Below, piece by piece: positions 6,175 through 42,284 of a DNA stretch of 42,284 bases. Numbering within the stretch: the stretch's first letter is position 1; each line of letters opens with the position of its first letter. The position numbers and the translations under genes are program-made. Source of the DNA: Hydrurus foetidus (taxonomy: Eukaryota). A model generated the notes under the pieces. The model saw only the letters and a program-made list of their open reading frames with translations. It was not told where the DNA came from and searched no databases. The stretch spans positions 1-42,284 of the forward strand of contig UYFQ01000075.1 in assembly GCA_900617105.1 (NCBI GenBank), read 5' to 3'.

Positions 6175-6390
6175 TGTGGTCTCACTAAGACTCTGGGCTG
6201 GAACGGAGGGCTGCTGGAACGCGGGCGAAGGAAAGGGGGTGATGGGGCTGGTGCTATGGATAGCAAAGTGGTTAGCTTACAGATAAACACAGCAGGTATC
6301 ATGGCAATGAATCGTGTGGATCGGATCGTCCTCGATCCGATCCGAACGTACGCCTGTACCCGTACCGCCCGTACGGGTGTACGGGTCACA
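6175..6390 (-). repeat. Gypsy-1 5' LTR (216 bp)
   Basis: Sense strand begins TGTGACC and ends GACCACA. Shares GTAAGCTAACCA with the Gypsy-2 LTR. Two hairpins at 6318-6343 and 6358-6378. Partner LTR is outside the window. Confidence 0.75.
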
Positions 6391-6498
6391 GTGATTACTG
6401 ACTACACCAAGCTTATTTCACGAGCCCTGACCGAGAGATCTTCAACAGCTGTACCGCGAGAGGCTGTACGTGACTGCAAAACCGAAGATCCGTCAATA
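6391..6498 (+). repeat. Copia 5' LTR, last 108 bp only
   Basis: Direct repeat of 19619-19726; ends TCAATA versus TCAACA in the 3' LTR. Confidence 0.92.
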
Positions 6499-6523
6499 TA
6501 ATTGACTGGTACAGGCATTCTCA

Positions 6524-8562
6524 ATGCCTCCCAAACGCGCCGTTGAAGCCCTTAAGAATACAGAAGAGTGTACGCTTCAATACGGCAAACACAGCAACAT
6601 TATCAAATGGAGAGAACATATGCAGACGATAGTTACCGAACTATACGGAATAGTGGGCATGTTCTTCACAACTAACGAGAGATACGAACTTCCGAAAGCA
6701 TCTCACAGGGATTACCCTTCAGATTCGTCATCGGAAAGTTCGGAATACGATACCGAAGAAGAGGAATCGGACGCCACAGATACCGCAGTTCCTGCGATCA
6801 CTGCAGCTGAAGCCGCGGCTAAAGCAGCGAGGGCCGCGGTGCGATTGGCAAGCAAAGAGAGCAAACGCAAGGCGTCAGAGAAATCGCGTGCAAAATTCAG
6901 AGAGGATGCGTTCATCCAGAGGAAGCGGGACCTCAAGACCCAACGCGAGAACGAACGTACGGTCTTCCCCATGATGTGGAAGCGTATGTCACTCGTGTCA
7001 CAGAGTAGAGTAAGGGAGGAAGAGGAATATAAGACGGCATACCTCACGCTGGACTGCGTCCTCCTGTGGACACTCATCCGGAGGACCCACCTGACACACA
7101 TGTTCGGTGCAGACGAGGCACTACAAGAATACAATCAGCACGAACAGGAGAATAAGTATTCGTCAATGAGACAAGGTGAGAGAGAACACCTAGTCACATT
7201 CAAGAATCGATTTGATGAACAGGTGGAGGCGAACTTTACCGTTGGGATCGCAGCGGTGTCCGATTCCAAACGTGCACTTGACTTCCTGGGCAAGCTAGAC
7301 CCCCAGAGGTTCAAAATCATCATGGACGACATGAAGCACGACGCACTCAGACGCAAACCGGATGCGTTCCCCAGCACACTAGCCTTAGCATTCCACATAT
7401 CAAACCAATGGAATGAAGGGAACGCTCCCGCACACACACCCACACCAGCACCCGCTGGGGTGAACGCAGCGTACGTTACCGAAGAAGTACACGTCACCAT
7501 GGCCAAGGATACCGAGAAGAAAGCAGGGAAAGCCGGAGGGGGAAGTAAGAAATCTTTGGATGATGTCGAATGCTTCAAATGCGAGAAGAAAGGTCACTAC
7601 GCGAGGAACTGCCCTCTTAGAAAACCGTCAGTGGAAAAAGTCCACGTCACGGTGACGGAGTCAGACAGTGAATACGAAGGGGAGACTAGCGAATGGGGTA
7701 TAGCGCTTGTCGCTACAGAAGAGATGTGCTGCTTTACAAAATTCGACGTGCTACTAGACAATGAGGCATCATTGAACATATTCAGTAACATGGACCTACT
7801 AACCGACGTGAGGAAGTCAAACAAGACTGTGAGAGTGAGTGGCATTGAGCAGGGTGGTGGCGTGTCTGTTGATCGAGAGGGGAACTTCGGAGAATTCGGA
7901 ACGGTCTATTACAGCGGAGCAGCATCGGCGAACATCCTATCGTTTGCAGCGCAAGTGGATTCGGGAGCAGAGATAAGATACGATCATCTAGTGGACTGCT
8001 TTACCCTGCAGCCGAAGGGGAGCGAGAAGACGTATCGATTCGGGAGGAAGCGCATCGTAGGCAGCGAAGGGAGATTTTACTCCTGTGATTGGAGAGAAGT
8101 CGATCATGATCGAGCATTAGTAACGACCGTGACTGACAATCTGAAAGCGTTCACTAAACGCGAAGTGGAGCAAGCGAGGCGAGCTCGGGAGATGCTCGCG
8201 AGAATTGGATTCCCAACCGTAGAGCAAGCTATGTCGATCATCAACTGCGGAAGCAATTTCGATGTGACAGCAAGGGACTTTCAGATTGCCGACGCAATAT
8301 GGGGGAAGGACATAGCCTCCCTGAAAGAAAAAACTACTAAGCGAGCGACTGCCACCGCCGATATAGCCGTCAGCACGAAACTTCTACAAAGGGATCAGGT
8401 GTTGTCGATCGACATTATGTATTTAGATAAATTAGCTATTCTGATTGGAGTGGCTACTCCACTGGGACTAACTATTGCATACAGTCTAAACGCAGCTGAT
8501 CTAAAGAAGCCAGCTAGGACGGCTGGCCATGTGAAGACCGGAATCAACCACTTTATCGGAGT
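6524..8562 (+). CDS. Copia Gag-Pol 5' part (Gag, zinc knuckle, protease, integrase N-part)
   Basis: CFKCEKKGHYARNC knuckle, LLDNEAS protease-like motif, SIDIMY first integrase Asp. The ORF-track tail past 8562 is read-through into the Gypsy-2 LTR. Confidence 0.92.
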
Positions 8563-8688
8563 TGTGGTCGTCTGGGGTTCTAGGTTAGCCACATGCACTA
8601 ATCCTATACCTTCTCCACTAAGTTTCATAGTAAGCTAACCAGCATTCTCCCTCGCACCATCTTTAGCCTAGATTCCTTCTAGGCCACA
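8563..8688 (+). repeat. Gypsy-2 5' LTR
   Basis: TGTGG...CCACA; identical to 16373-16498. Confidence 0.97.
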
Positions 8689-8787
8689 GTGACGTCACTC
8701 AGCCGTTTAAATTCCCTCTTTCCGTCTTCTATAACCCTACCCCATTTGTCATTTCCATCTCCTTGAGATAACTGCTCGAATCCCGCC

Positions 8788-11022
8788 GTGGAGGACTTCC
8801 AGAAAGTTCCTCTCCTCAGAGATCGTCTTTATCTTGAAGAGCTTCGTCTTATCAACGAAGAACTCCAGTTTCGGAGAGATACAACTCCCGTAGAAGGAGA
8901 GGCAGCAGTCGTTTCGACTGACCAAAATCTCCCAACTTTTGTTGAAACTTCGATTCCTCAACCGAGAAGTCGTTCCAGAGTCGTAAGACCTGTGCTCCTT
9001 CGGGAAGACGCGAGTTCATCGCGATTTGCCACCTCTAATCTCCATTCTACTCCTTCCACACGCCAAACACAACCCCGATTCAATTCGGCGACTTCAGCTT
9101 TTAAGCCTAGGAGACCGACTTCCAAGTCGAGAACATCCTTCCCAGGGCCTCCTGCGACTTTAGTCAGCAGTGAAACAGGGTTTGCAACTCAAACCTTGCG
9201 GAATTTGTTGCTGGACAACGATTTCCTGACAGAATTCCCAGTTTCAGTTTCAGAAACTGCGCCGAGAAAAAACTCGCACTTTCGTTCGGAGTTAAACTCC
9301 AACTTAAGCCTAAGCTCTAAGCCTAGCGAAAAATACATCCGGGGATTATATCCTGTTGAAGCACCTCCCGCTTCTAACGAGGTGCCGGAAGACATTTTTC
9401 CTTACGAAAAAGCTCCGAAAATAAATCCTACATTACGAGTAGGAAATCTCGATAGAATTGCTCCTTTGACAAGGAGAAAGTCGAAGATAGCCCTCCTGCG
9501 TGCTGCAGCGACTCCGCTCTCAGCAGGGAGAACACCCTTGACCGGGCCAAAAGTCTTGAAACCCAATTTGAAATTGGTGACAAAATCACCCTCCATCATG
9601 GAAGACATAGTTGACCAGTTTGACTCAAGTCCTGGTGACTTTGGCGAAGAGTTAGGTGAGATAGTTGATTCTAACTATGCCGAACTCTCTGACAACGAAC
9701 TCGTTGACGAATTTCTCGCCGAACCCGGTGATTTACAGCAATCATCGGAGACAAATCCATCGCAAATACCACTTTTAAGTGCTATAACTGATGTGACAAC
9801 CCAAGTTTTACCTGTGCCTACTATTACTAGAGCACAACAACTTGAGAACCTTTTTAATACACGCATGTCTGGTGGTATTAACTTGAATAGTGCACTTGTT
9901 GTACTCGACTCATTCGAAATTTCGGGTGAGTTAGCCTTGAAATTTCAAACTCAAGCGAATGCTTTTGCAAATAACTTTACTTTAAGTCAAGTAATAGTTT
10001 ATCCTGCAACTGAGATCATACAATTTGCTTTTGCAAGTGATCCCAAATTTACTATTCTTACGAAAGATAAATTTGCGACGTGGCTTGAACACGTTACAGT
10101 CGCTCAGGCTGCCCAAATTGTCACAAAGTACTTTGGTGCTAAATCAGACATTGGTAGAACACTAGTAGAGAATTTTTCTCAAATTCCTATTAGATTCAAC
10201 TTCTCTCATCGAGCACTTGAAAGACAAACATTTGTCGCGATGAAATCGTTAACACACGATTACTCCATCGTTGAACCAATCACTCAGGCACAGCATGCTG
10301 CCTTGATAATTACGATTGAGAAAAAGTTAAAACCGGATAGTCAATTGAGAACTGATTATTTCGAGAAAAAGAAAGCAAATCCTACTCAAGGTGAAACTTG
10401 GGAGGATGCTTACACACGCTTGGTAGCGTGCATTGCGTCCGTTCGCGAACTAAACGAGCATATTGCACGATATGGCAGTATGACCTCAGACAATGAACTT
10501 GCTCTGAGGTCTTCTGATTACTCAGTTGTCAAATCCACACCCAATGTGATGATGCCTTCGGTGCCGTTGATCCATCAACGATCCTTCGCAGCTTCAGTTT
10601 ATGAAAAACAAGCTGGTGTTCCTAATACACAATCCCAGCCCTTAATATCGGCTGGAGTAACAAAGCGAGCTTCTTTGAAGGGATTCCAATGTCGTTCATG
10701 CGGCCATACTACACACAAAGTAGCGGCCTGTCCAGTCCTGTTTTATACAGATGCCAACAATGAGCTCCATCTGGAATGGAAGGATTCACCTATGGGTAAG
10801 GAGTGGGCGCGTCATAACTATACAACTCACTCCTTGGACATAGCGCTTCCAGGCCATGAAGATCAGTATCTGAACAGACTTCAGAGCGAGTTTCATGTGT
10901 CCATGTTGAACCCTCCCCGGAATGACTTCAAGCGAACACGTTTCGACAATAACATTCCGGGTGGTCAACAACAGCCGGGCTCATCGAATCCTCAACAACC
11001 GATGTCGAATTCGCAGAAATAA
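8788..11022 (+). CDS. Gypsy-2 Gag (GTG at 8788; first ATG at 9598)
   Basis: 744-aa ORF after the 5' LTR with CRSCGHTTHKVAAC zinc knuckle near the C-terminus. Confidence 0.8.
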   Translation: MEDFQKVPLLRDRLYLEELRLINEELQFRRDTTPVEGEAAVVSTDQNLPTFVETSIPQPRSRSRVVRPVLLREDASSSRFATSNLHSTPSTRQTQPRFNSATSAFKPRRPTSKSRTSFPGPPATLVSSETGFATQTLRNLLLDNDFLTEFPVSVSETAPRKNSHFRSELNSNLSLSSKPSEKYIRGLYPVEAPPASNEVPEDIFPYEKAPKINPTLRVGNLDRIAPLTRRKSKIALLRAAATPLSAGRTPLTGPKVLKPNLKLVTKSPSIMEDIVDQFDSSPGDFGEELGEIVDSNYAELSDNELVDEFLAEPGDLQQSSETNPSQIPLLSAITDVTTQVLPVPTITRAQQLENLFNTRMSGGINLNSALVVLDSFEISGELALKFQTQANAFANNFTLSQVIVYPATEIIQFAFASDPKFTILTKDKFATWLEHVTVAQAAQIVTKYFGAKSDIGRTLVENFSQIPIRFNFSHRALERQTFVAMKSLTHDYSIVEPITQAQHAALIITIEKKLKPDSQLRTDYFEKKKANPTQGETWEDAYTRLVACIASVRELNEHIARYGSMTSDNELALRSSDYSVVKSTPNVMMPSVPLIHQRSFAASVYEKQAGVPNTQSQPLISAGVTKRASLKGFQCRSCGHTTHKVAACPVLFYTDANNELHLEWKDSPMGKEWARHNYTTHSLDIALPGHEDQYLNRLQSEFHVSMLNPPRNDFKRTRFDNNIPGGQQQPGSSNPQQPMSNSQK

Positions 11023-14000
11023 AAAACAAGGTAACAATGAAACCTTGGCATCCTTACTAGCTGCAGTAGTATCGAAAATTAACACTGATACTAATTTCCT
11101 TTCTTCTTGGATTTTCATTAATCAGCCAAGTTGCAAGCAGCTCAGAGCCAGGGGATATACCAACCCCCGCCATCCTCCTTGCCATGAGATGGTTATGGGA
11201 GATGTCCTGCTAGACACGGGTAGTCTACCAGGCGACTTTATTAGTCAGGAATTAGTTCATAAGTTACATGGAGATAGTTTTGTATATACATCTCCTTCAC
11301 CTTTAACTATATGTTCTGGTCTCGATAACACTTGTTATGTCAGAGACCAGGTTGTCGATATTGGGTTATCATTTGTGACCCATTCCCTTGTAATTAAAAC
11401 GATATACTTAACAGTACGAATTATACCAAATTCGATTGATTTAATTTTGGGCCGACAAACTTTGAAAAAATTAGATTTTTTTCACTGACCCCATTTGAAA
11501 TGGGTATGCCAAATATTGTTAATTCAAGGAAAAGACTTGAATTACTGTATACTGTGAAAGGTATTTGTCCTGAATTTGACAGTTCGGAGAAGAATAAGAG
11601 ATGCCCTCATTCTGGTGTAGGTACCTTGCCTGTTCACTCTTCAAACACAGACAGAGTCGCTAACTGTCTGGATGTTGAATGTGCATGTCAGTCTAGCGCC
11701 GCTGGGGCACAAACTATGCGCGACGACTGTAACTATGTATCAACCCATAGTGGTGTTGCTTGTACTCGTACATACACCCTCGCACACATAAGTGAACAGC
11801 CAGATAGTACTGTGACAGCTACTAGAGTGGAAACACCTAGTGGTATCGTAATCTCTTGTGACGAGATAGATAATGAGAAAGCTGATACTTTTTCACCATT
11901 CGTTCCTGAACAGACTCAGTCAGATACCTTGCCTGTAAAGCTTGAGGAATATTTATCGTTGATTACTTTTGAAGGCACACAAAGCCAGATAGAAGATATG
12001 AAACGCCTCTGTCGCAAGTATTCAGATATCTTCAGTGATAAACTGCCAGCTAAACCTGCGAAACTACCGCCATTTCAAATCAATGCAGATAAAAAATTAT
12101 GGCACAGTCCTAAAAATAGGACTGCCGTTCGTCTACAATCCGTACGAAAAGAACGTGAAATTAAACGGTTCATCGATGAGATGTTACTGTCAGGGATCAT
12201 CGAGAAATCGGATGCAGTGTACTATTCCCATCCTGTAATTGTACAAAAAACAGCGGAATTATTCAGATTTTGTATTGACTATCGACTTCTGAATAAGTGC
12301 ACTGAGGCATCTAGTTGGCCTCTCCCGAATATTCGTGCCCTCCTCGAAAGAGTCGGCCATTACAAGCCAGATACATTCGGGGTTATGGATTTAACCTCAG
12401 GCTACCATCAAGCACCTATGGACGCTGCATCCAAAGTCTTGACTGCGTTTATTTGTTATTCTGGCGTATACCAATTCACCAGGCTCCCCTTCGGTCCTCG
12501 AAGAGCTCCATCTTACTTCCAAGAGATGATGACAACTGTTGTCCTTAATGGACTCATTTACACTAAATGTGAGATGTACTTAGATGATTGTATCGTCTTT
12601 GCCCGAGGACACGATGAATTCCTGGAGAGACTAGAACGAGTCTTTCGACGTTTTCGTTGTTTTGGTCTATTCCTAAAAGCAAAAAAATGCAGATTTGGTA
12701 TGAAACAAATCGACTATGTGGGTCGCCAAATCTCTTCTCAAGGCATTTCTATGTCGAAAGAAAAGATTGAGTCGGTATTAAATTTTCCGAAACCCAAATC
12801 ACTAACTGCTTTACGCAGCTTTTTAGGATTGGCGAACTATTTCAGAAGTTTCGTACCGTTTCATTCAGATATAGTTAAACCTCTGCAACAAATGATTGAT
12901 CCCAAAGGGAAAAAGAAATCTTCAATTCTTTGGACCCCCGAAGCTGAAAAAGCTTTCGTTAAAATTCGAGAACAAGTTGCTCGTTGCCCATTACTACACT
13001 TTATGGATGAAGAATCACCAGTAGAGTTATATACTGACGCTTCCGATTATGGAATTGGAGGTGTACTTTTCCAAAGAGTAAATGGTGACTTAAAACCTAT
13101 TTCATTTGTCAGTAAGTCGCTAAGCGCAACACAATGTAAATGGTCGACAATCCAAAAGGAAGCTTACGCAATATATCATTGCTGTAAACAATTGGACTCT
13201 CTTATAAGAGATAGAAAATTTAAAATTTTTACTGACCATAAGAATTTAACATTCTTAATGTCTACACTCCAGCTGTTTGTCCGACCGGTGGACATGGGCA
13301 CTGTCCGACCGGTCGGACAGTGCTGACATATGACATTTTTGACTCCTTACATGATCCTATAGCTTAGAAATCGATTGCAATTAGTTGCCTAGCATTAAAT
13401 TGACATGCTTGATGATATTGCTTGATGATATTGGTCGAACAGAAAAAAACTAGTTATAGTGAAATAATATGTTTAATACGTTCTTTTAGTGCTCATGCAG
13501 GACACTGATACATCAAACTTTTAGGAGCAAAAAAGGAATATACAACTGCAAGAACCATTGAAGAAGGGTCGAGTAGGTAAGATGCCATGAAGGCGACATC
13601 AAGGGCTGATAATATCATTTGTTTGAAGACAGGTGGAGTACGCAGGAAAATCGACACAATAAAAATATTGAGGGATACCCAAAACAGAGACTTTACACCA
13701 ATATGCAATATCAAAACGATGATTCATAACACATTTGATGCTCTGGAACGATACAAGTGACTGCATCGGAGAGATTCGCTTGAAATAGCCGTCCGAGGTG
13801 AAAATCTGAAATCGGTCCAAAATCGGTCGATGGGGCAAACGCTGACAGCTATAACTTCACTACAAAAGTGGCGCTTTCTCAGGCATCGATGGGAAACTGT
13901 TGAGGAAGTCCTGATCAATAGAAGCATGAAAATTTCCTAGTCAGAATGGGCGTTGCTCAGAAATTATCAGGCTGCATTTCCTTGTGAAAATCGATTTGCA

Positions 14001-16093
14001 TTCTGGATTGCAATCCTCACCATATTCCAATCGCTCCGCTATTACACCAATATTCCGTGATCTCCTTTTGGCGTTTGAACTTGACCATCATTTATGACAC
14101 AAAATAATATGATCTGCAGGCACAGAAGTGAAGAAATTTCAGAGAAAATTTTGACAGAAGATTTCAGCCACAAATCGCCAAACCAAAGGAGCAATCAGCT
14201 ATTGCGCTGTCGCCACATAACCAAAATTCGAGGCGATTGTGGAGGGGAAACTGTTCATTGCACTCTAGTCAAACAGTCGACGTCGAAAATGATTCCAACA
14301 CCTTAGAGATTCGCTTGGAAGTTAGACCATCGCCAAATTTGGCGAACCAGCGAGTTGATCCACTGCCCCAGTCCATATCTCAGCAAAGAAGTCTCCGTTT
14401 GAAGAGGTGAAGTTATGCCTTTGATCGGCACATTTGGAGCTATCGAATTCGCCGAGATACTGCTTCAAACTCATCGAATTGAGAAATATTTCATATGGGT
14501 CAAAATTGTCCTACCGGTCGGACAAACGTCCTACCGGGTGGACGGCCTGGAGGATAGACATTAAGTCAAGACCCATCTACGATGGTGAACCGTTGGTCTA
14601 TAGCGCTACAAGAATTAGACTACTCAATTGAATACATTGCTGGTTCAAATAACGATCTGGCTGATGCAATGTCACGCTTGTGCCCCAACCTAACTCCTGT
14701 TCCTACAGTGCCAGATAGTGTTCCTTCAGACATTGCTGAAGCAGTTGTATCAGCTTTACACAAAATTATACCCGTGTCTGATTCACAACTTGAAAAAATA
14801 GAGATGTCTCATAACTCCATGATGGGACATGGAGGAGTACTACGAACCATTGAACACCTAAAAGGGTTAGAAGAACAATGGCTTGACATGGAACATCATG
14901 TCAAAGACTTCATTCAAAACTGTGCCTGCTGCCAGAAGATGAGTGTCATCAAAATTCCTGTGCATATTCACAGATATACAACGTCAACATACAGACCGTT
15001 CGATACCGTAAATATTGATTACGTTGGTCCATTTCCGGATAACGGTTATGTGTTAGTAATGATATGTTCATTCACTCGATGGACAGAACTTTACTGGTGT
15101 TCGAACAACACAGCACATTCGGCTTGCGAATGCCTTCTCCAATTTTTTGGCAGGTTTGGAGCACCAAGCATGATCAGGTCAGATCGTGGTCCTCATTTTA
15201 TGAATGAGATTGTAAAAGAATTTTTAATTCGAACAAATACTCCACACAACTTAACGTTGGCATATTCTAAACAAGAGAATGCAATAGTGGAAAGAATTAA
15301 CAAAGAAGTAAATCGCCATTTAAGAGCATTTACTTTCGATTCAGCAAGTCTAGAATCATATAAACTTTGCCTGCCTTTTGTGCAGAGAATCATAAACAGC
15401 GCGGTACACTCAAGTACTGGTGCTTCTCCAGCAAGCTTGCTGTTCGGAAATCAGCTTAATCTCAATAGAGGTATTCTGACTAAATTTCCATATAATCCTG
15501 AGTTACCGATCTCAGCATCTAAAATTATAGCTAATATGCTATTAATACAACAACAGCTCAACAACATGGCTGAAACTCACTTAAAGAGCGCTGACAAATT
15601 ACATGTCGCTGTCAATCTAACTCCAGAAACAATTTTTGAAATTGATTCTTATGTTCTTGCTCTTAACCCTAAAGGGCCAGAGACAAGATTACACTGTAAA
15701 TAGCTTGGCCCATTCAAAGTAGTAACCTTTGATAAAAGTCAGTACACTATACTGAACTTGATCACTCACAAAACCCGTGATGTTCATGCTAGTCAATTAA
15801 AGCTATTTAAATTTGATCCGACTAAAAGATCCCCGACTGATACAGCACGTCGTGATTACATGGAATTCTTCATTGAAGACATTCTTTCTCATGTTGGAAA
15901 TAAGTCTAAACCATCCACAATGAGATTCCATGTTAAGTGGTTGAATTACGACTCAACTCATAATACGTGGGAACCTTGGCAATCCCTACGCACGACAGAT
16001 CAATTACATAAATATCTTCGTGATAACAACATGGTTAAAACAATACCGAAACAATTTCGAGATAAACCTCCATTTGACATGGAGCACCCGTGA
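11023..16093 (+). pseudogene. Gypsy-2 Pol (PR, RT, RNase H, IN, chromodomain), disrupted
   Basis: LLDTGS, YLDD, DASDYGIGG, RSDRGPHF, and chromodomain FFIEDILSH...VKWLNY...NTWEP. Frameshifts near 11020 and 11480, transposon insertion 13259-14560, TAG at 15701-15703 where Gypsy-3 has Trp (W-x-GP motif). Confidence 0.92.
13259..14560. mobile_element. Non-autonomous TIR DNA transposon (1302 bp) inserted at TTAA in Gypsy-2 RNase H
   Basis: TTAA at 13255-13258 and 14561-14564. TIRs TGTCTACACTCCAG / CTGGAGGATAGACA (12 of 14 match). Subterminal TGTCCGACCGGT repeats. Removal restores TFLSQDPSTMVNRW in frame. Confidence 0.9.
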
Positions 16094-16096
16094 ATT

Positions 16097-16184
16097 TTAT
16101 CTATGAAGATTCCTCCTATTTTTTTTAATCAGTTCACAACTGATTTTTTTTTGGAGGTTTAGTTAGTAAGAATCTGACATAATC
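16097..16184 (+). other. ENE-like structured RNA element in the Gypsy-2 3' UTR
   Basis: CCUCC/GGAGG stem, U8 and U7 internal loop, AAUCAGUU-CAC-AACUGAUU upper stem; homologous to 39371-39456. Confidence 0.7.
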
Positions 16185-16372
16185 AATCACGGGTAGCCCA
16201 CACTTCACCTTCTTTTTGACAAAATTGTTTTTATACTTCATGTTTTATTTCAACTGCCCTTCCTTCTGAAGCGCTAGACTAGTTTCACAAAATTTAGTTT
16301 TAGTACCCTTCATTTCGAAGCGCTAGACTAGTCAAACATTTGCTAAATCTTTTTTGAAATAAGTAGGGGTAG

Positions 16373-16498
16373 TGTGGTCGTCTGGGGTTCTAGGTTAGCC
16401 ACATGCACTAATCCTATACCTTCTCCACTAAGTTTCATAGTAAGCTAACCAGCATTCTCCCTCGCACCATCTTTAGCCTAGATTCCTTCTAGGCCACA
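16373..16498 (+). repeat. Gypsy-2 3' LTR
   Basis: Identical to 8563-8688; follows AAGTAGGGGTAG. Confidence 0.97.
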
Positions 16499-16502
16499 GA
16501 GT

Positions 16503-19317
16503 CCTCGCGGCGCAGAATTTCAGGACGTCCGTGATTATGAGCGACGGAGAGGGGGCAGTGGTCAGCCTTGTCGATGAGCTTGGGAAACTTGGAGTGGAGG
16601 TGGACATCAGCGGAGCCGGTGGACACGTCGCTAGGATTGAAAGAAAGATCAGGATTGTTAAAGAGAGAGTACGCTGTCATGTAGCGTACCACCTTCCGTT
16701 TGTACTGTCAACCGTGGGTATCGCGATGCTCGTACTGTACTGTATATCTAGGTTAAACTATGAACCAACCGGACTGCGGAAACGGGGCCCCAGCCCCCGG
16801 GAGGCGTTTATAGGTCGGAAGCCAGAGGGTAAGAGGGATTTTCGCTGCTCTTTCGGAGACTATGCACAGTGTACTGTCACTAACACAGACTCAGGCATGG
16901 AGAGCAGAACAGAAGACTGTGTGGTGATGCTGCCCCTCGGGAACCGCACCGGGTCGGTGCGAATGTTGTCTCTCAAAACGGGCAGACTAGTCAATCGAGA
17001 TCAGTTCCGCATACTGCCGATGCCGGAGTCGGTCATTAAACGCCTTAACGAGCTTGCGCTCGCTGACGGAAGAATGAAGGGCAAGGGGGAGATATACACC
17101 AAACCTACATCGTACGAACAGGACAGCGGGGCTAAGTCCGATCTCCCCGACACGATCGACAGCCTGGTTAATAACGGGGTCGATCCTGCAATACTGTCAC
17201 TGGATATACACGACGACGAGTCTGACATCATTGACACTCTCAATGAGGAACAGTATGACAATGGGGGTGAGTACGGACGCGGACAGCAAAGTGACGATGC
17301 GGCGGGGAACGATTCAGATCTGCATGGTGAGACCGCTGAGTACCAAGAATTAGAAATACGGGAGCAGACACACGGCTATGACCATGAGATGGATAGCTTG
17401 GTAGATGACACGAACCGCATGCGTGCCGGACCGAGAGACTACGACGAGAAGGGGCTGGACGGCATCGACTCGAGCGGGGTGCCAGCCGACTACACAGCGA
17501 GCGGCGGCGCGGACCACGACGGCGGAGACCCGAGGGACGCATTAGACCGGACAGAGAGATTGCTAGCAGCACCGAGAGTTCCACTGGAAAGGGGAGTAAA
17601 CAGACACGAGCTGATGGATTTTTTCAGGGCGAAGAGTGGGACAGCACTGTTAACTCGCAGCTACGAGGGGGACGGCGCAGAGTGGGGTGACTACGTATTC
17701 AACATATCGGTCAACGAGGCGCTACGCACCAGGGGTGACGCGGCGGTGAGTGTCATACAGAAAGAGCTCCAGCAAATGATAGACAAGAAGGTGTGGGAAC
17801 CGGTGTGTGTGAAGGGACTGACGATGGAAGAGAAACATAGGATCATCAGGTCGAGTATGTTCCTGAAAGAGAAGTTCCTAGCGAGCGGAGACTTTGAGAA
17901 ACTGAAAGCGCGACTTGTCGCGGGAGGTAACCAACAAGATCGCAACCTATATGATGACTTATCTGCACCCACAGTGGCCACCAGCTCGGTGTTCACGCTG
18001 CTGAGCATAGCGGGACATGAGGCGCGGAGGATCACAGTGATTGATATCGGCGGAGCGTTCCTGAACGCGGACATGACAACCGGGCTCGCGGTGCACATGC
18101 GATTGGATAGGAATATGACGAGCATTATGACACGGCTGTCTCCGCGGTACTCGCAGTTCGTGGACCATAAGGGGTGTGTCGTGGTGAGGCTTGACAACGC
18201 CCTGTATGGGTGTGTGGAGTCGGCAGCCCTGTGGTACGAGAACCTGCGAGAAGGACTGTCACGGATGGGATATGTACCGAACGCGCATGACATGTGTGTC
18301 TTCAACAAGAACGACGAGTACGGGGTGCAGTACACCATTGCTGTGCACGTAGATGACCTCATGATCACCAGTGTCAACGGGGCGATGATCGAGGCGGTCG
18401 CGACTGGACTGATAGAAAGGTATGGTGATATCACCAGAAAGGATGGCCCTATAGTGAACTACCTAGGTATGGTATTCAACCTATCAATCGCAGGTGTCGC
18501 CAGGGTATCGATGACCGGGTATGTCGAGGACATGATGAAGGAAAGCGGGACGATAGGGGGTGCGAGGACACCGGCCACCGAGGGACTATTCGACACGAGA
18601 GATGATGCCGTACCGGCGAGCGAAGAGGACCGAATCAGATTCCACCGCCTTGTGGCCAAGGGTCTGTACCTCGGGAAGCGCGCGAGGCCCGACTGCATGA
18701 CCGCCTTGGCATTCTTGGCGACCCGAGTGACCAGATGCACAGCGGACGATCTGGTGAAGCTCGAGCGACTGCTCAAGTATATCAATGCGACGAAGGACAG
18801 AGGGATAGTTTTCGCGCCGGGGAAACAGGGGATCGATGTCAGTTTGCTGATAGATGCAGCGTACGGTGTGCACCCTGATGGCAAGTCCCACACCGGGAGT
18901 TGTGTGGTAGTGGGAGAGTTGGGTGCGGTACACTCGAAGTCGGCGAAGCAGCAGATTGTGACGAAGTCCAGTACGGAGGCAGAGCTGGTTGCTCTTTCCG
19001 ATTCAACTAACCAAGCATTACACATGAGACAATTTATCATAGGGCAAGGACATGCGTGCGGGCCGGTGACAGTATACCAGGATAACATGTCTTGCATGGC
19101 GCTCATTGAGAGAGGGCGGTCAGCGGCGGAGCGCACGCGGCACATAGCGATCAAGTACTTCTGGCTCAAGGAGCGGGTGGACCAAGGAGAAGCGAGAGTG
19201 CGCCACCTTGGAACTAAGCACATGTACGCCAACCTTCTGACCAAGCCGCTGCAGGGGGCACAGTTCAAGTCAGAGAGGCAGGCACTCACCGGATGGGACC
19301 AAGAGATAGTAGTTTAG
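16503..19317 (+). CDS. Copia Gag-Pol 3' part (integrase core, RT, RNase H)
   Basis: Removing Gypsy-2 and one GAGT restores HFIGVLAAQNFRTSVIMSDGEG and a 4854-nt ORF (1617 aa). Motifs KARLVAGG, DIGGAFL, ALYG, HVDD, IDAAYG, SSTEAE, YQDN. Confidence 0.95.
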
Positions 19318-19385
19318 ACAATGTTTAATTAAAGACTTATGCGTGATGCGTGAATAGGAGTTGATTGTGATGCGGCATAGGGGTG

Positions 19386-19448
19386 TGTTGGAGATATCTG
19401 TATTTATGACACGAACACAATCAGTGTACTTATGCACGTACGGATTAT

Positions 19449-19485
<37 letters not shown>

Positions 19486-19726
19486 ACATACGTGAAGACG
19501 ATGGATGGATCCGTGCATCGTCACTAAATACTTCAACTGTAGTGTTTGATTGATTGTTGTTGTTGCGTTGGAAGGGACTCGGGGACTTCAGCAGGGATGA
19601 AGCACAGTCAATTAACAAGTGATTACTGACTACACCAAGCTTATTTCACGAGCCCTGACCGAGAGATCTTCAACAGCTGTACCGCGAGAGGCTGTACGTG
19701 ACTGCAAAACCGAAGATCCGTCAACA
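19386..19726 (+). repeat. Copia 3' LTR (341 bp) containing a (TG)16 microsatellite at 19451-19482
   Basis: TGTTG...CAACA termini, preceded by a purine tract; last 108 bp repeated at 6391-6498. Confidence 0.88.
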
Positions 19727-38904: not shown

Positions 38905-39016
38905 GATCCCGAATTTTGAATTTTTTAATTAAAATTACGGTTCAGGTTCTAGTCTCGAATCTGAAAATGTAAAAAGTCTCGGATCCCGGATTCCGGATCC
39001 AGGTCCGGAAACCTTG

Positions 39017-39278
39017 TGTGGTCTGGGGCGGGGCCTAGGACGTTGGAGCTGATGTTGGTGGATGGTTGGTGCAAGCGGCGGGCAAGGAAAGCGAGAGTCG
39101 GTGGAATAAACTTGTGTTAGTATCTTACAGTTGAGTATATACAAGTGATGTGTACGCTAAAGTGCATTCACGTCATATGTGGAACTAAGACCTAAAAGTG
39201 GAATCTGGGCGTAATATACCTATTGTACCTAGTTAACCTAGACACATTGTATCCCCTTAGGAATGCAATAAGGCTACA
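39017..39278 (-). repeat. Gypsy-3 3' LTR; distal end uncertain (39017 or 39178)
   Basis: Starts right after the purine tract. Two candidate CCACA ends. 39017-39143 shares GCGGGC(G)AAGGAAAG and GTTAG..CTTACAG with the Gypsy-1 LTR. Confidence 0.55.
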
Positions 39279-39370
39279 CTACCCCTTCTTCCTTTTTTGA
39301 AGATCTTTGATATGATATACAAAAAAAATGAAAAGATATGTAAAACATAAATATGAGATATAGATGAAAC

Positions 39371-39456
39371 GATTATGTCAGACTTTTACTGACTAAACTC
39401 TCCAAAAAAAGACCCGTAGGTAAAAAAAAAAGAAGGAGAGAATCCTCATGGATAAA
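39371..39456 (-). other. ENE-like structured RNA element in the Gypsy-3 3' UTR
   Basis: CUCUCC/GGAGAG stem, U10 and CU7 internal loop, ACC-UACG-GGU upper hairpin; flanks conserved with 16097-16184. Confidence 0.7.
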
Positions 39457-39473
39457 GTTTCAAATATATTAAG

Positions 39474-42284
39474 TCATCGATGTTGCTTATTGATTAATTT
39501 TATCATGTTATTATGACGTAAATAATCATGAAGTTTATCAACATCACGAAGACTTGAGTAAGGTTCCCAAGTGTTTTTGTCTGAAGGGTAATTTAACCAT
39601 TTGACTAAAAACTCTATGTGGGTACGTTGGTGTTTGCCACGATGATCAAGAATGTCTTCAACAAAGTATTCCATGTGATCACGTCGTGCAACATCCAACG
39701 GATTTGTGATTGAAGGGTCAAATAGAAAAGGTTTCATTGCAGAAACATGAAACTCTGAAGTTTTCTGAGTGACTAGATCATAAAGTGTGTAACGCGAATT
39801 TTCGCCACTAACGACTTTTAATGGGCCTCTCCAATGCGTGTGAAGACGTGAAGGAGGAGTTCCATCGCGATAGTGCACTAAGACATAAGAGTCTTTTGGA
39901 TACTCTACATGCTGAAAAATTTGAGACTGACTTTGATGAAGCAAATCTGTGCGAAGAAGTTCTTTAGCAGAAGCTTTAAGAAGACTGTCTTGCGTTTTGA
40001 GTAGATTGCTCATACGCTTTGACAAAGGTGTGTCATCAGTTTTCTCTCAGCAGGAGGTAAAAAAATACCTCTATCGAGTTTGAGTACATTTCCGAAAAGA
40101 AGTTGAGAAGATGATATTTTTAAACGGTCACTGTGATTAGAATTTAAGATTCTTTGCACAAATGGAAGTGACGTTTTATAATCTTCTAATGTGACATTAT
40201 CGAATGTTAATGCACGAAGATGTCTATTTACTTCTTTATTCATGCGCTCAACAATAGCATTTTCTTCTTTAGAGTATGCTAAAGTAAGACAATGTTGAGT
40301 GCCAATATGAGTTAGAAACTCTCTAATAACTTCGGAAATGAAGTGTGGCCCATTATCAGAACGGAGTTGGAGAGGTGCGCCGAAACGACCGAAGTGTTGC
40401 AAGAGGCATTTAGCTGTTGAAAGTGCTGTAGCATCTTCTGTATGAAACAGTTCAACCCATCTTGTGAACGTATCGATAATTACGAGTACGTACCCGCCGT
40501 CTGGAAACGGTCCTATGAAGTCTATGTTAAGGCATTCCATAGGTGTGTAAGTAGAACCATGAGCATGTATTGGTATCTTTAACATACTCATTTTCTGACA
40601 ACACGAACAGTGATCTATGAACCACCTGACATGCTGACGCATATATTGCCATACTATCTTTTTGTCAATGAGACGCTTTAAAGTGCGCTCAAGGCCGAAA
40701 TGCCCAACTTGTGAATTGTGTACTTTACTGATTGTATTGTACTGATCACGTGTTAGTTTGAATTTTTCAATAGTATTAGCAGACATGATTGCATCAGGAG
40801 TATATTCCTGAGGGAAATCAACCATGTTATTGCGACAGAGTCGAGACATCGAATCAGCTATATCATTGTTAGCACCAGGTATATATTCAATTTTAAATGA
40901 ATATTCGGATAAGGCCATAAACCACCGAACAATCATTGGATTTGAATTATCCTTGATGTATAACAAGTTACGATGATCTGTACGCAATGTGAACGTACGA
41001 TCACGTAATAGCGATTTTAAATACGTGCACGAATAAAAGATAGCATATGCTTCTTTTTGTATAACAGCCCAACGAAGCTGAGCTTTGTTAAGTGATTTAC
41101 TGACAAATGCTATGGGCGTCTCTTGACCGTCAACTAGCTGGAAAAGATAGGCACCTACACCATAGTCCGATGCATCAGTGTGCAAGTAAATCGGATCGGT
41201 GTCACTTAAAAAGTGCATAGTCGTGCATTTTGAAATCTCGGATTTGATCAAATTGAATGCTCTGAGAGCTTCTATTGTCCAAGTTATTTTCTTATACTTA
41301 TTATAGTTAAGAAGCAACTGATGTAACGGGTATACAACAGTAGAAGCGTTTCTAACAAAGTCGTGAAAATAATTAACCAATCCTAAAAAACTCTTGAGTT
41401 GTTTAGATAGTACTGGTTTAGGAAAATCTAAGACAGTCCGTATTTTTTCTTGTGACATTCTAAGTCCATCTGCAGATAGAACTTTGCCAACATAATCTAT
41501 TTCGGCATAGCCTAGATAACACTTATTCGGTTTAAGGAATATTTTGTGTTTTCTAAAACGTTCAAACACAAGACGAAGTCTAGAAATAAGTTCGTCAATG
41601 TCTTTACCGAAAACATTGCAATCATCTATGTACATTTCGCATATAGAGTATATCAGCCCTGCTAACACAACAGTCGTCATGATCTGTTGGAAATAGGAGG
41701 GTGCTTGTTTAGGCCCAAAGGGTAAACGAGTGAATTGATATACTCCGCAGAAAAGTATGAATGCAGTATAAGCACGTGCAGCAAGTGTAAGTGGTGCTTG
41801 ATGGTAACCTTGAGTGAGGTCAAGTACAGCAAACACTTTTGCTTTATGTGCACCTATTCTACGCAACATCTCACCGATGTGTGGAATAGGATGTGATTTA
41901 TCTTCGGTACAATTGTTGAGATTCCGAAAATCAATACACATGCGCTTAGTTCCATCAGATTTTGGAACTAGTAAAACTTGGCTATAATAAGCCGCGTTTG
42001 ATTTTTCAACAATATTTTGTTTTCAAGTTTTTTAATTTGACTGAGAATGTCAGCTTGATCAACTGTTGATTTAGACCATGGAGGTTGTCTATTTTTAGGA
42101 ACTCTCCATTGGTCGTCATTGACATGAAAGTCAAACGGTGGAATATCAGCAGGAGTGGCCGAAAGTTCACTGCTAAATATATCCTTGAATTCGTGTACTA
42201 GTAACCGAAGTTTATTTTTCTGATCTTCATCACCTGCTAAGTTTATTAGCGAGAGTGGGTCAGTATCAGGAAATTCATCTATCA
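39474..42284 (-). pseudogene. Gypsy-3 Pol (RT, RNase H, IN, chromodomain) with frameshifts near 42025 and 40020
   Basis: YIDD, DASDYGVG, RSDNGPHF, HWRGP, chromodomain YFVEDILDH...VKWLNY...NTWEP. Confidence 0.92.

Follow-up and report, generated by a model that had tools for sequence, protein, structure and literature searches.

A copia element whose primer-binding site pairs with its own LTR, and predicted self-priming in its lineage

A recent copia insertion broken by gypsy elements

The window (the whole stretch of DNA analysed, 42,284 nt) carries a Ty1/copia element interrupted by two Ty3/gypsy elements (Table 1). The copia assignment was based on zf-CCHC and RVT_2 hits, on the LTR ends and on the order gag-PR-IN-RT-RH between TG...CA LTRs; the RVT_2 score of the RT was only 76 bits, and the Pfam scan gave no rve hit in the element. 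Protease, integrase and RNase H were located using full-length homologues and motifs that we take to be typical of these domains, and what we take to be the catalytic motifs of RT and RNase H are present. The two pol halves are otherwise stop-free and their summed length is a multiple of three, while full-length relatives of ~1,600 aa match the joined halves. The GGGGTG/TGT junction of the likely polypurine tract (PPT) and the 3' LTR also occurs in relatives, for example L002, L010, L021, L040 and L042.

Table 1. Features of the copia element and of the gypsy elements that interrupt it
Feature	Position	Strand	Remarks
Ty3/gypsy LTR interrupting the copia 5' LTR	6175..6390	-	body of this element runs to window start
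Copia 5' LTR remnant, last 108 nt of R-U5	6391..6498	+	1 mismatch to 19619-19726, at 6497
Primer-binding site (PBS), TAATTGACTG, exact complement of LTR tract	6499..6508	+	adjoins 5' LTR end at 6498
gag (CCHC knuckle), protease, start of integrase	6524..8562	+	without stop codon
Nested Ty3/gypsy splitting the copia pol frame	8563..16498	+	identical 126-nt LTRs 8563-8688 and 16373-16498; target duplication GAGT
Remainder of integrase, RT (Pfam RVT_2), RNase H, copia order	16503..19317	+	terminal stop only
Likely PPT, short, purine-rich, ending GGGGTG	19371..19385	+	upstream of 3' LTR
3' LTR, 341 nt, TGTTG...CAACA	19386..19726	+
Predicted self-primer, CAGTCAATTA	19605..19614	+	initiator-like CA at 19603-19604 and 19605-19606; predicted start 19604-19606

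The 5' LTR remnant differs from the 3' LTR at a single position and is cut by the second gypsy element, so the copia copy is young but disrupted: a recent insertion that has since been broken, and inactivated, by two gypsy insertions. The gypsy LTR at 6175-6390 was inserted 4 nt downstream of the expected position of the LTR tract in the 5' LTR, and because it left a remnant of only 108 nt, the tract is visible in this copy only in the 3' LTR. The insertion also parts the site of the predicted primer from the PBS here. The body of that element was named gypsy because its DNA resembles that of the other two gypsy elements, and from reading its sequence, rather than from a Pfam scan.

Further transposon sequences were seen in the window. 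Between the RNase H and integrase of the nested gypsy element lies a DNA element (~13267-14552, boundaries approximate) with CTCCAG...CTGGAG ends and subterminal GTCCGACCGGT repeats, which makes a third layer of nesting. A third gypsy element, on the reverse strand at ~39000-42284, is related to the nested one; it has RT, RH and IN, and its PPT is accompanied by a 3' LTR ending CCACA, as in the other two gypsy elements.

Complementarity between the post-LTR sequence and the LTR

The initial annotation had claimed that the 10 nt directly following the 5' LTR (TAATTGACTG, 6499-6508) are the exact reverse complement of CAGTCAATTA at 19605-19614 in the 3' LTR. This is the case, and the match is exactly 10 nt long; the tract begins at a distance of 122 nt from the 3' LTR end, in agreement with the value of about 120 nt given there. 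Of 20,000 LTR shuffles, 8 gave a match of at least 10 nt at offset 0 and 19 gave one at offsets 0-4, and matches of this length occurred at 19 of 41,749 other window positions. There is likewise no TGG at the LTR edge in the window, as had been stated; one TGG lies further in, at 6507-6509. The PBS thus lies right after the LTR, is complementary to the element's own LTR and is not of the TGG type, as in self-primed elements.

Folding predictions were made for a model of the family leader, composed of R-U5 from the 3' LTR and the PBS. The 10-bp PBS helix was predicted to form with a probability of 0.86-1.0, and the leader as a whole was not unusually stable (-32.7 vs -28.6 +/- 4.0). A hairpin across the LTR end (6492-6506) was considered as the functional structure and rejected, since it is weak (-5.8 kcal/mol) and is lengthened by a T at 6497 that is private to the window. 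Rfam matches in the LTR were far under gathering scores and lay over a GT repeat, and were also discarded. No tRNA genes were found in the window or in the 30 loci scanned of 101 loci of relatives.

Other copies of the family were examined by comparing 6200-7000 with contigs of four sequencing runs (X1, X3, X7 and X8), which, being contigs, are uninformative on RNA ends. The DNA is present in runs from freshwater, sediment and air. Upstream of 6391, loose ends of other copies run into ...CACAGTCAATTAACA (among the matches listed for three of the four runs, X1, X7 and X8). The 5' LTR in the window ends CAATA, where the family end is CAACA: at 6497 the family has C at a depth of 20,051 of 20,163 in X1 and at all listed depth in X3, X7 and X8. 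Position 6510, the base after the internal TGG, is polymorphic (T/C) in the family. Among the differences listed (40 of 231 substitutions and 12 of 17 indels), none falls inside 6499-6508. In all four runs, summed contig depth over the gypsy LTR segment 6254-6390, which is rich in GATCC/GTAC palindromic repeats, was far greater than over the copia region, suggesting that this segment is a very abundant repeat.

Own-LTR pairing across the copia lineage

Relatives were collected with an RT-based scan, which yielded 79 metagenome loci (from the best 80 of 559 confirmed) and 22 loci from prokaryote bins. The latter (L080-L101) are eukaryotic copia-like contigs in GTDB prokaryote bins, six of them in one actinobacterial MAG, and are most likely eukaryotic binning contamination. 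Neither an RT scan of viral contigs nor gag-alignment scans of metagenome and viral contigs yielded relatives. In many loci the end of pol, LTR, PBS and start of gag are contiguous, because the contigs are collapsed LTR-plus-interior sequences. The gag start could be called in 49 of the 101 loci, and 47 had enough upstream sequence to be testable. The tested relatives are 35-55% identical to the window element in RT-RH, and among the loci sampled no relative with an LTR-PBS junction was closer than 55%. Automatic PPT and terminal-repeat calls of LTR starts were unreliable, and the DNA alignment of the window with L002 was poor; both were left out.

Pairing was assessed in two ways. The junction-free test, the only one blind to the junction, compared the last 60 nt before the ATG with the upstream region in 48 elements including the window. 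Matches of at least 10 nt were found in 29/48 elements against their own upstream region and in 93/2,256 cross-pairs; at a threshold of at least 12 nt the figures were 19/48 and 10/2,256. The junction-anchored test was applied to 41 elements, after seven loci without an LTR-end-like pentamer near the called ATG had been dropped, and used a pentamer list that was picked after inspecting the loci. Here, 32/41 elements (the window and 31/40 relatives) had a match of at least 9 nt, in every case at offset 0, the first base after the LTR end, as compared with 21/1,640 cross-pairs and 109/8,200 local shuffles. Covariation of PBS and LTR in related families, which the initial annotation had named as a check on its reading, was thus found: in these 31 of 40 testable relatives the pairing is kept while its letters have changed.

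The remaining nine elements fell below 9 nt in the anchored test, and several of these and of the seven dropped loci proved by eye to be mis-called starts that do pair. Inspection by eye also showed pairing at an LTR-like end in loci missed by the rule, namely L002, L010, L012, L015, L016, L022, L023, L030, L035, L071/L073, L074, L076, L086 and L091. In L021, L026, L028, L040, L042, L077, L078, L079 and L088 the pairing is weak, truncated or doubtful. L077 also has an 18-nt inverted repeat upstream of gag (~1087-1182), which starts from a TCA-like site but has no CA directly before its downstream arm. Tract-bearing relatives are spread over the whole RT-RH tree, which was built from relatives only and in which pairwise identity ranges from 31 to 97% (median 44%).

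For a description of the tracts, 29 cases were kept. The nine below 9 nt were dropped, as were two near-duplicates (L081 and L093) and L044, whose match, 469 nt away, is probably due to chance. The tracts are 9-25 nt long and lie 59-477 nt from the LTR end (median 122). All 29 PBS 9-mers are distinct, and in none of the 41 elements does the PBS begin with TGG. PBS positions 2-4 read AAT in 19/29 cases, giving a conserved CA/NAAT junction. A CA is present at -1 to +1 of the tract start in 25/29 cases (background 0.16), in the window at both -1 and +1, and a YA lies no more than one base from the tract start in all 29 (background 0.41). An initiator would be expected to look like this. At -40 to -15, a TATA[AT]A box was absent from all 29. 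In 24 loci that were re-inspected, a PBS pattern of the kind we associate with tRNA-iMet was not found.

Changes in the two arms are matched. Between L066 and L093 a single base pair differs, with both arms changed, and the pair in L002 (AGTCTAATTA / TAATTAGACT; 54% RT-RH identity) is that of the window apart from a one-base indel, which is matched between the arms. L057, L063 and L065, which share 85-90% RT identity, have differing matched tracts of 21, 19 and 25 nt, respectively; these unrelated primer/PBS pairs are situated 155, 106 and 113 nt from the LTR end. The comparison suggests that start site and PBS may shift together quickly. A C directly follows the PBS in 14/29 cases, as compared with 18% in the leader background, though not in the window; this is a hint only, and such a base could pair with the cap guanosine.

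Predicted self-priming, its alternatives and known systems

To our knowledge, experimental proof of self-priming exists for gypsy elements of the Tf1 type alone; among copia elements, a single plant lineage has been predicted to use it. The complementarity observed here, which starts directly behind the LTR and is retained with differing letters, and the CA at the tract start make it likely, from sequence comparison, that the window copia primes reverse transcription as Tf1 does, with the first 9-11 nt of its own RNA. RNA polymerase II would start at the A of an initiator-like CA, at 19604 or 19606 in 3'-LTR coordinates, which we consider more likely than a start at the C at 19605. The capped 5' end of the RNA would fold onto the PBS ~120 nt downstream. 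Cleavage on the 3' side of the tract, by analogy with Tf1 probably carried out by the RNase H of the element, would free a 3'-OH opposite the terminal CA of the LTR, and RT would then extend to minus-strand strong-stop DNA. The conserved CA/NAAT junction may be part of a cleavage or primer-handling signal. More speculatively, when the primer is copied into the plus strand, the PBS might be overwritten with the sequence of the RNA 5' end; the joint change of the two arms would then be accounted for.

The PBS/LTR pairing could also be functional with a primer other than the 5' end of the same RNA, either the tract as repeated in the 3' R or the 5' terminus of a second packaged RNA, or the duplex could be structural and stand beside another primer. 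A tract at the predicted start of R is also near the RNA 3' end, sequence covariation does not tell whether pairing occurs in cis or in trans or which of the two tract copies, 5' or 3', takes part, and flanking duplexes of the Tf1 type are not conserved in the lineage. However, an initiator-like CA marks the tract start, as expected for a primer taken from a capped 5' end, and the PBS always abuts the LTR end, a geometry found likewise in Tf1 (PMC7175516); we regard readings of this kind as improbable. It is very improbable that a host tRNA or tRNA half, or the TGG at 6507-6509, provides priming and that the LTR match is incidental. Half-tRNA PBSs without TGG do exist in copia lineages (PMC6317226, PMC5445492), but each of the 29 different PBSs is matched to the LTR of its own element and seldom to that of another, and a fixed host primer therefore cannot explain them. 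In addition, the base after the internal TGG is polymorphic and no relative has a TGG at the LTR edge. Judged by eye, the 10-mer also lacks the U33-NNN-R37 register that we take to be typical of an anticodon loop. Membership of the half-tRNA-primed copia elements with a fixed PBS (Osser, Bryco, Bianca, FunCo1) was rejected on the same grounds, all 29 PBS 9-mers being distinct and matched to their own LTR. A chance match has to be weighed, since this is a single 10-mer and many elements are scanned in such a survey, but with its rarity in the LTR shuffles (8 of 20,000) and the recurrence of the geometry in 31/40 relatives we give it hardly any credence.

Self-priming by the RNA 5' end has been demonstrated experimentally for Tf1, which belongs with Tf2 of Schizosaccharomyces pombe, Tj1 and Tosmo to the Tf1/sushi group of Ty3/gypsy chromoviruses (PMC7175516, PMC4600332, PMC10085805). 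As in Tf1, the PBS of the window element directly follows the 5' LTR and is complementary to a tract of its own LTR at the predicted start, over ~10 nt as compared with 11 nt in Tf1 (PMC7175516, PMC4600332, PMC10085805). The primer of Tf1 is released by RNase H cleavage (PMC7175516), and Tf1 needs two extra flanking duplexes (PMC10085805). In contrast to Tf1, the present lineage has the copia domain order and an RVT_2-type RT, its primer tract varies from 9 to 25 nt among relatives, the CA/NAAT junction is conserved and the flanks of the Tf1 'pretzel' are not enriched. When exact Watson-Crick runs were counted, the two duplexes reached p<=0.05 in 0/29 and 2/29 cases; the window has candidates of 6 and 7 bp (p about 0.06 each). 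Membership of Tf1/sushi itself was rejected because of the RVT_2 domain and the position of integrase before RT. The window copia stands outside Tf1/sushi but likely works like Tf1.

The initial annotation had read the pairing as self-priming and regarded such priming as known from gypsy and not from copia. The reading is supported by the 31/40 relatives with an own-LTR match and by the CA at the tract start, whereas the statement about precedent was wrong: self-priming has been predicted for the plant Ty1/copia TAR lineage, which includes Houba, Osr-1 and Fourf, and Neumann et al. (2019) cite Capy (2005) for Houba and Osr-1 (PMC6317226). The window lineage is thus not the first copia case of predicted self-priming. 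Like TAR, it is a copia lineage with a PBS matching its own LTR, and the match in the window falls within the range given by Neumann et al. of at least 10 bp starting 0-5 bp after the LTR (PMC6317226). The two appear to be of different descent. TAR maps to GyDB Tork (PMC6317226), while CoDi-like elements are placed in GyDB Branch 1, a different copia branch (Llorens et al., PMC2774666). The nearest Atlas clusters of the window RT are eukaryotic, with diatoms commonest among the three to four recorded members, and, judged from these taxa, the window element likely shares its broad lineage with the CoDi elements of diatoms (CoDiI/CoDiII; Blackbeard, Surcouf). We infer from these placements that the window lineage is separate from TAR, and an independent origin of its self-priming is plausible. 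The main text of Maumus et al. (2009) on CoDi contains neither 'tRNA' nor 'priming' and describes no priming mode, and the literature searched, which excludes most subscription papers, contains no report that copia elements of diatoms or other stramenopiles are self-primed.

The broader proposal is put forward with considerably more reserve, as a possibility that we favour a little less than its negation. A large and old copia lineage of aquatic microbial eukaryotes, apart from TAR and Tf1, may have evolved tRNA-free priming independently. Its capped 5'-end primer would be free in length (9-25 nt) and sequence and would be released without the Tf1 pretzel at CA/NAAT, and its PBS would be rewritten from the RNA 5' end, allowing a joint shift of start site and PBS from one close family to another. 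With dozens of primer/PBS pairs compensated in nature, the lineage would be a second one within copia, deeply diverged from the first, and it bears on whether tRNA-free priming is ancestral or was repeatedly invented, a question that has been raised previously (PMC3601003). It also suggests a primer-release signal other than that of Tf1, and would offer a ready test system in tractable algae. PBS finders based on tRNAs would miss such elements, which a self-primed PBS explains.

Among tRNA-independent copia elements, fungal GalEa has a Conserved Hairpin Site in place of a tRNA PBS, with a conserved 9-mer after the LTR (CTAATTAGT or CTGATCAGT; PMC5445492). This 9-mer resembles the NAAT start of the PBS in the present lineage, but in GalEa the partner follows 12-41 nt further downstream and a complementary tract in the LTR was not found (PMC5445492), whereas the partner in the window is in the LTR. 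A separate observation concerns the two gypsy elements that interrupt the copia, both of which carry, precisely where the PBS would be, a perfect palindrome of 10 nt without TGG (GTGACGTCAC and ATACCGGTAT; 8689-8698 on the forward and 6174-6165 on the reverse strand). As there are 61 such 10-nt palindromes in the window, two exactly at gypsy PBS positions are unlikely by chance. They may reflect another non-tRNA mode of priming, or of dimerisation, and recall the palindromic CHSeq1 of fungal GalEa.
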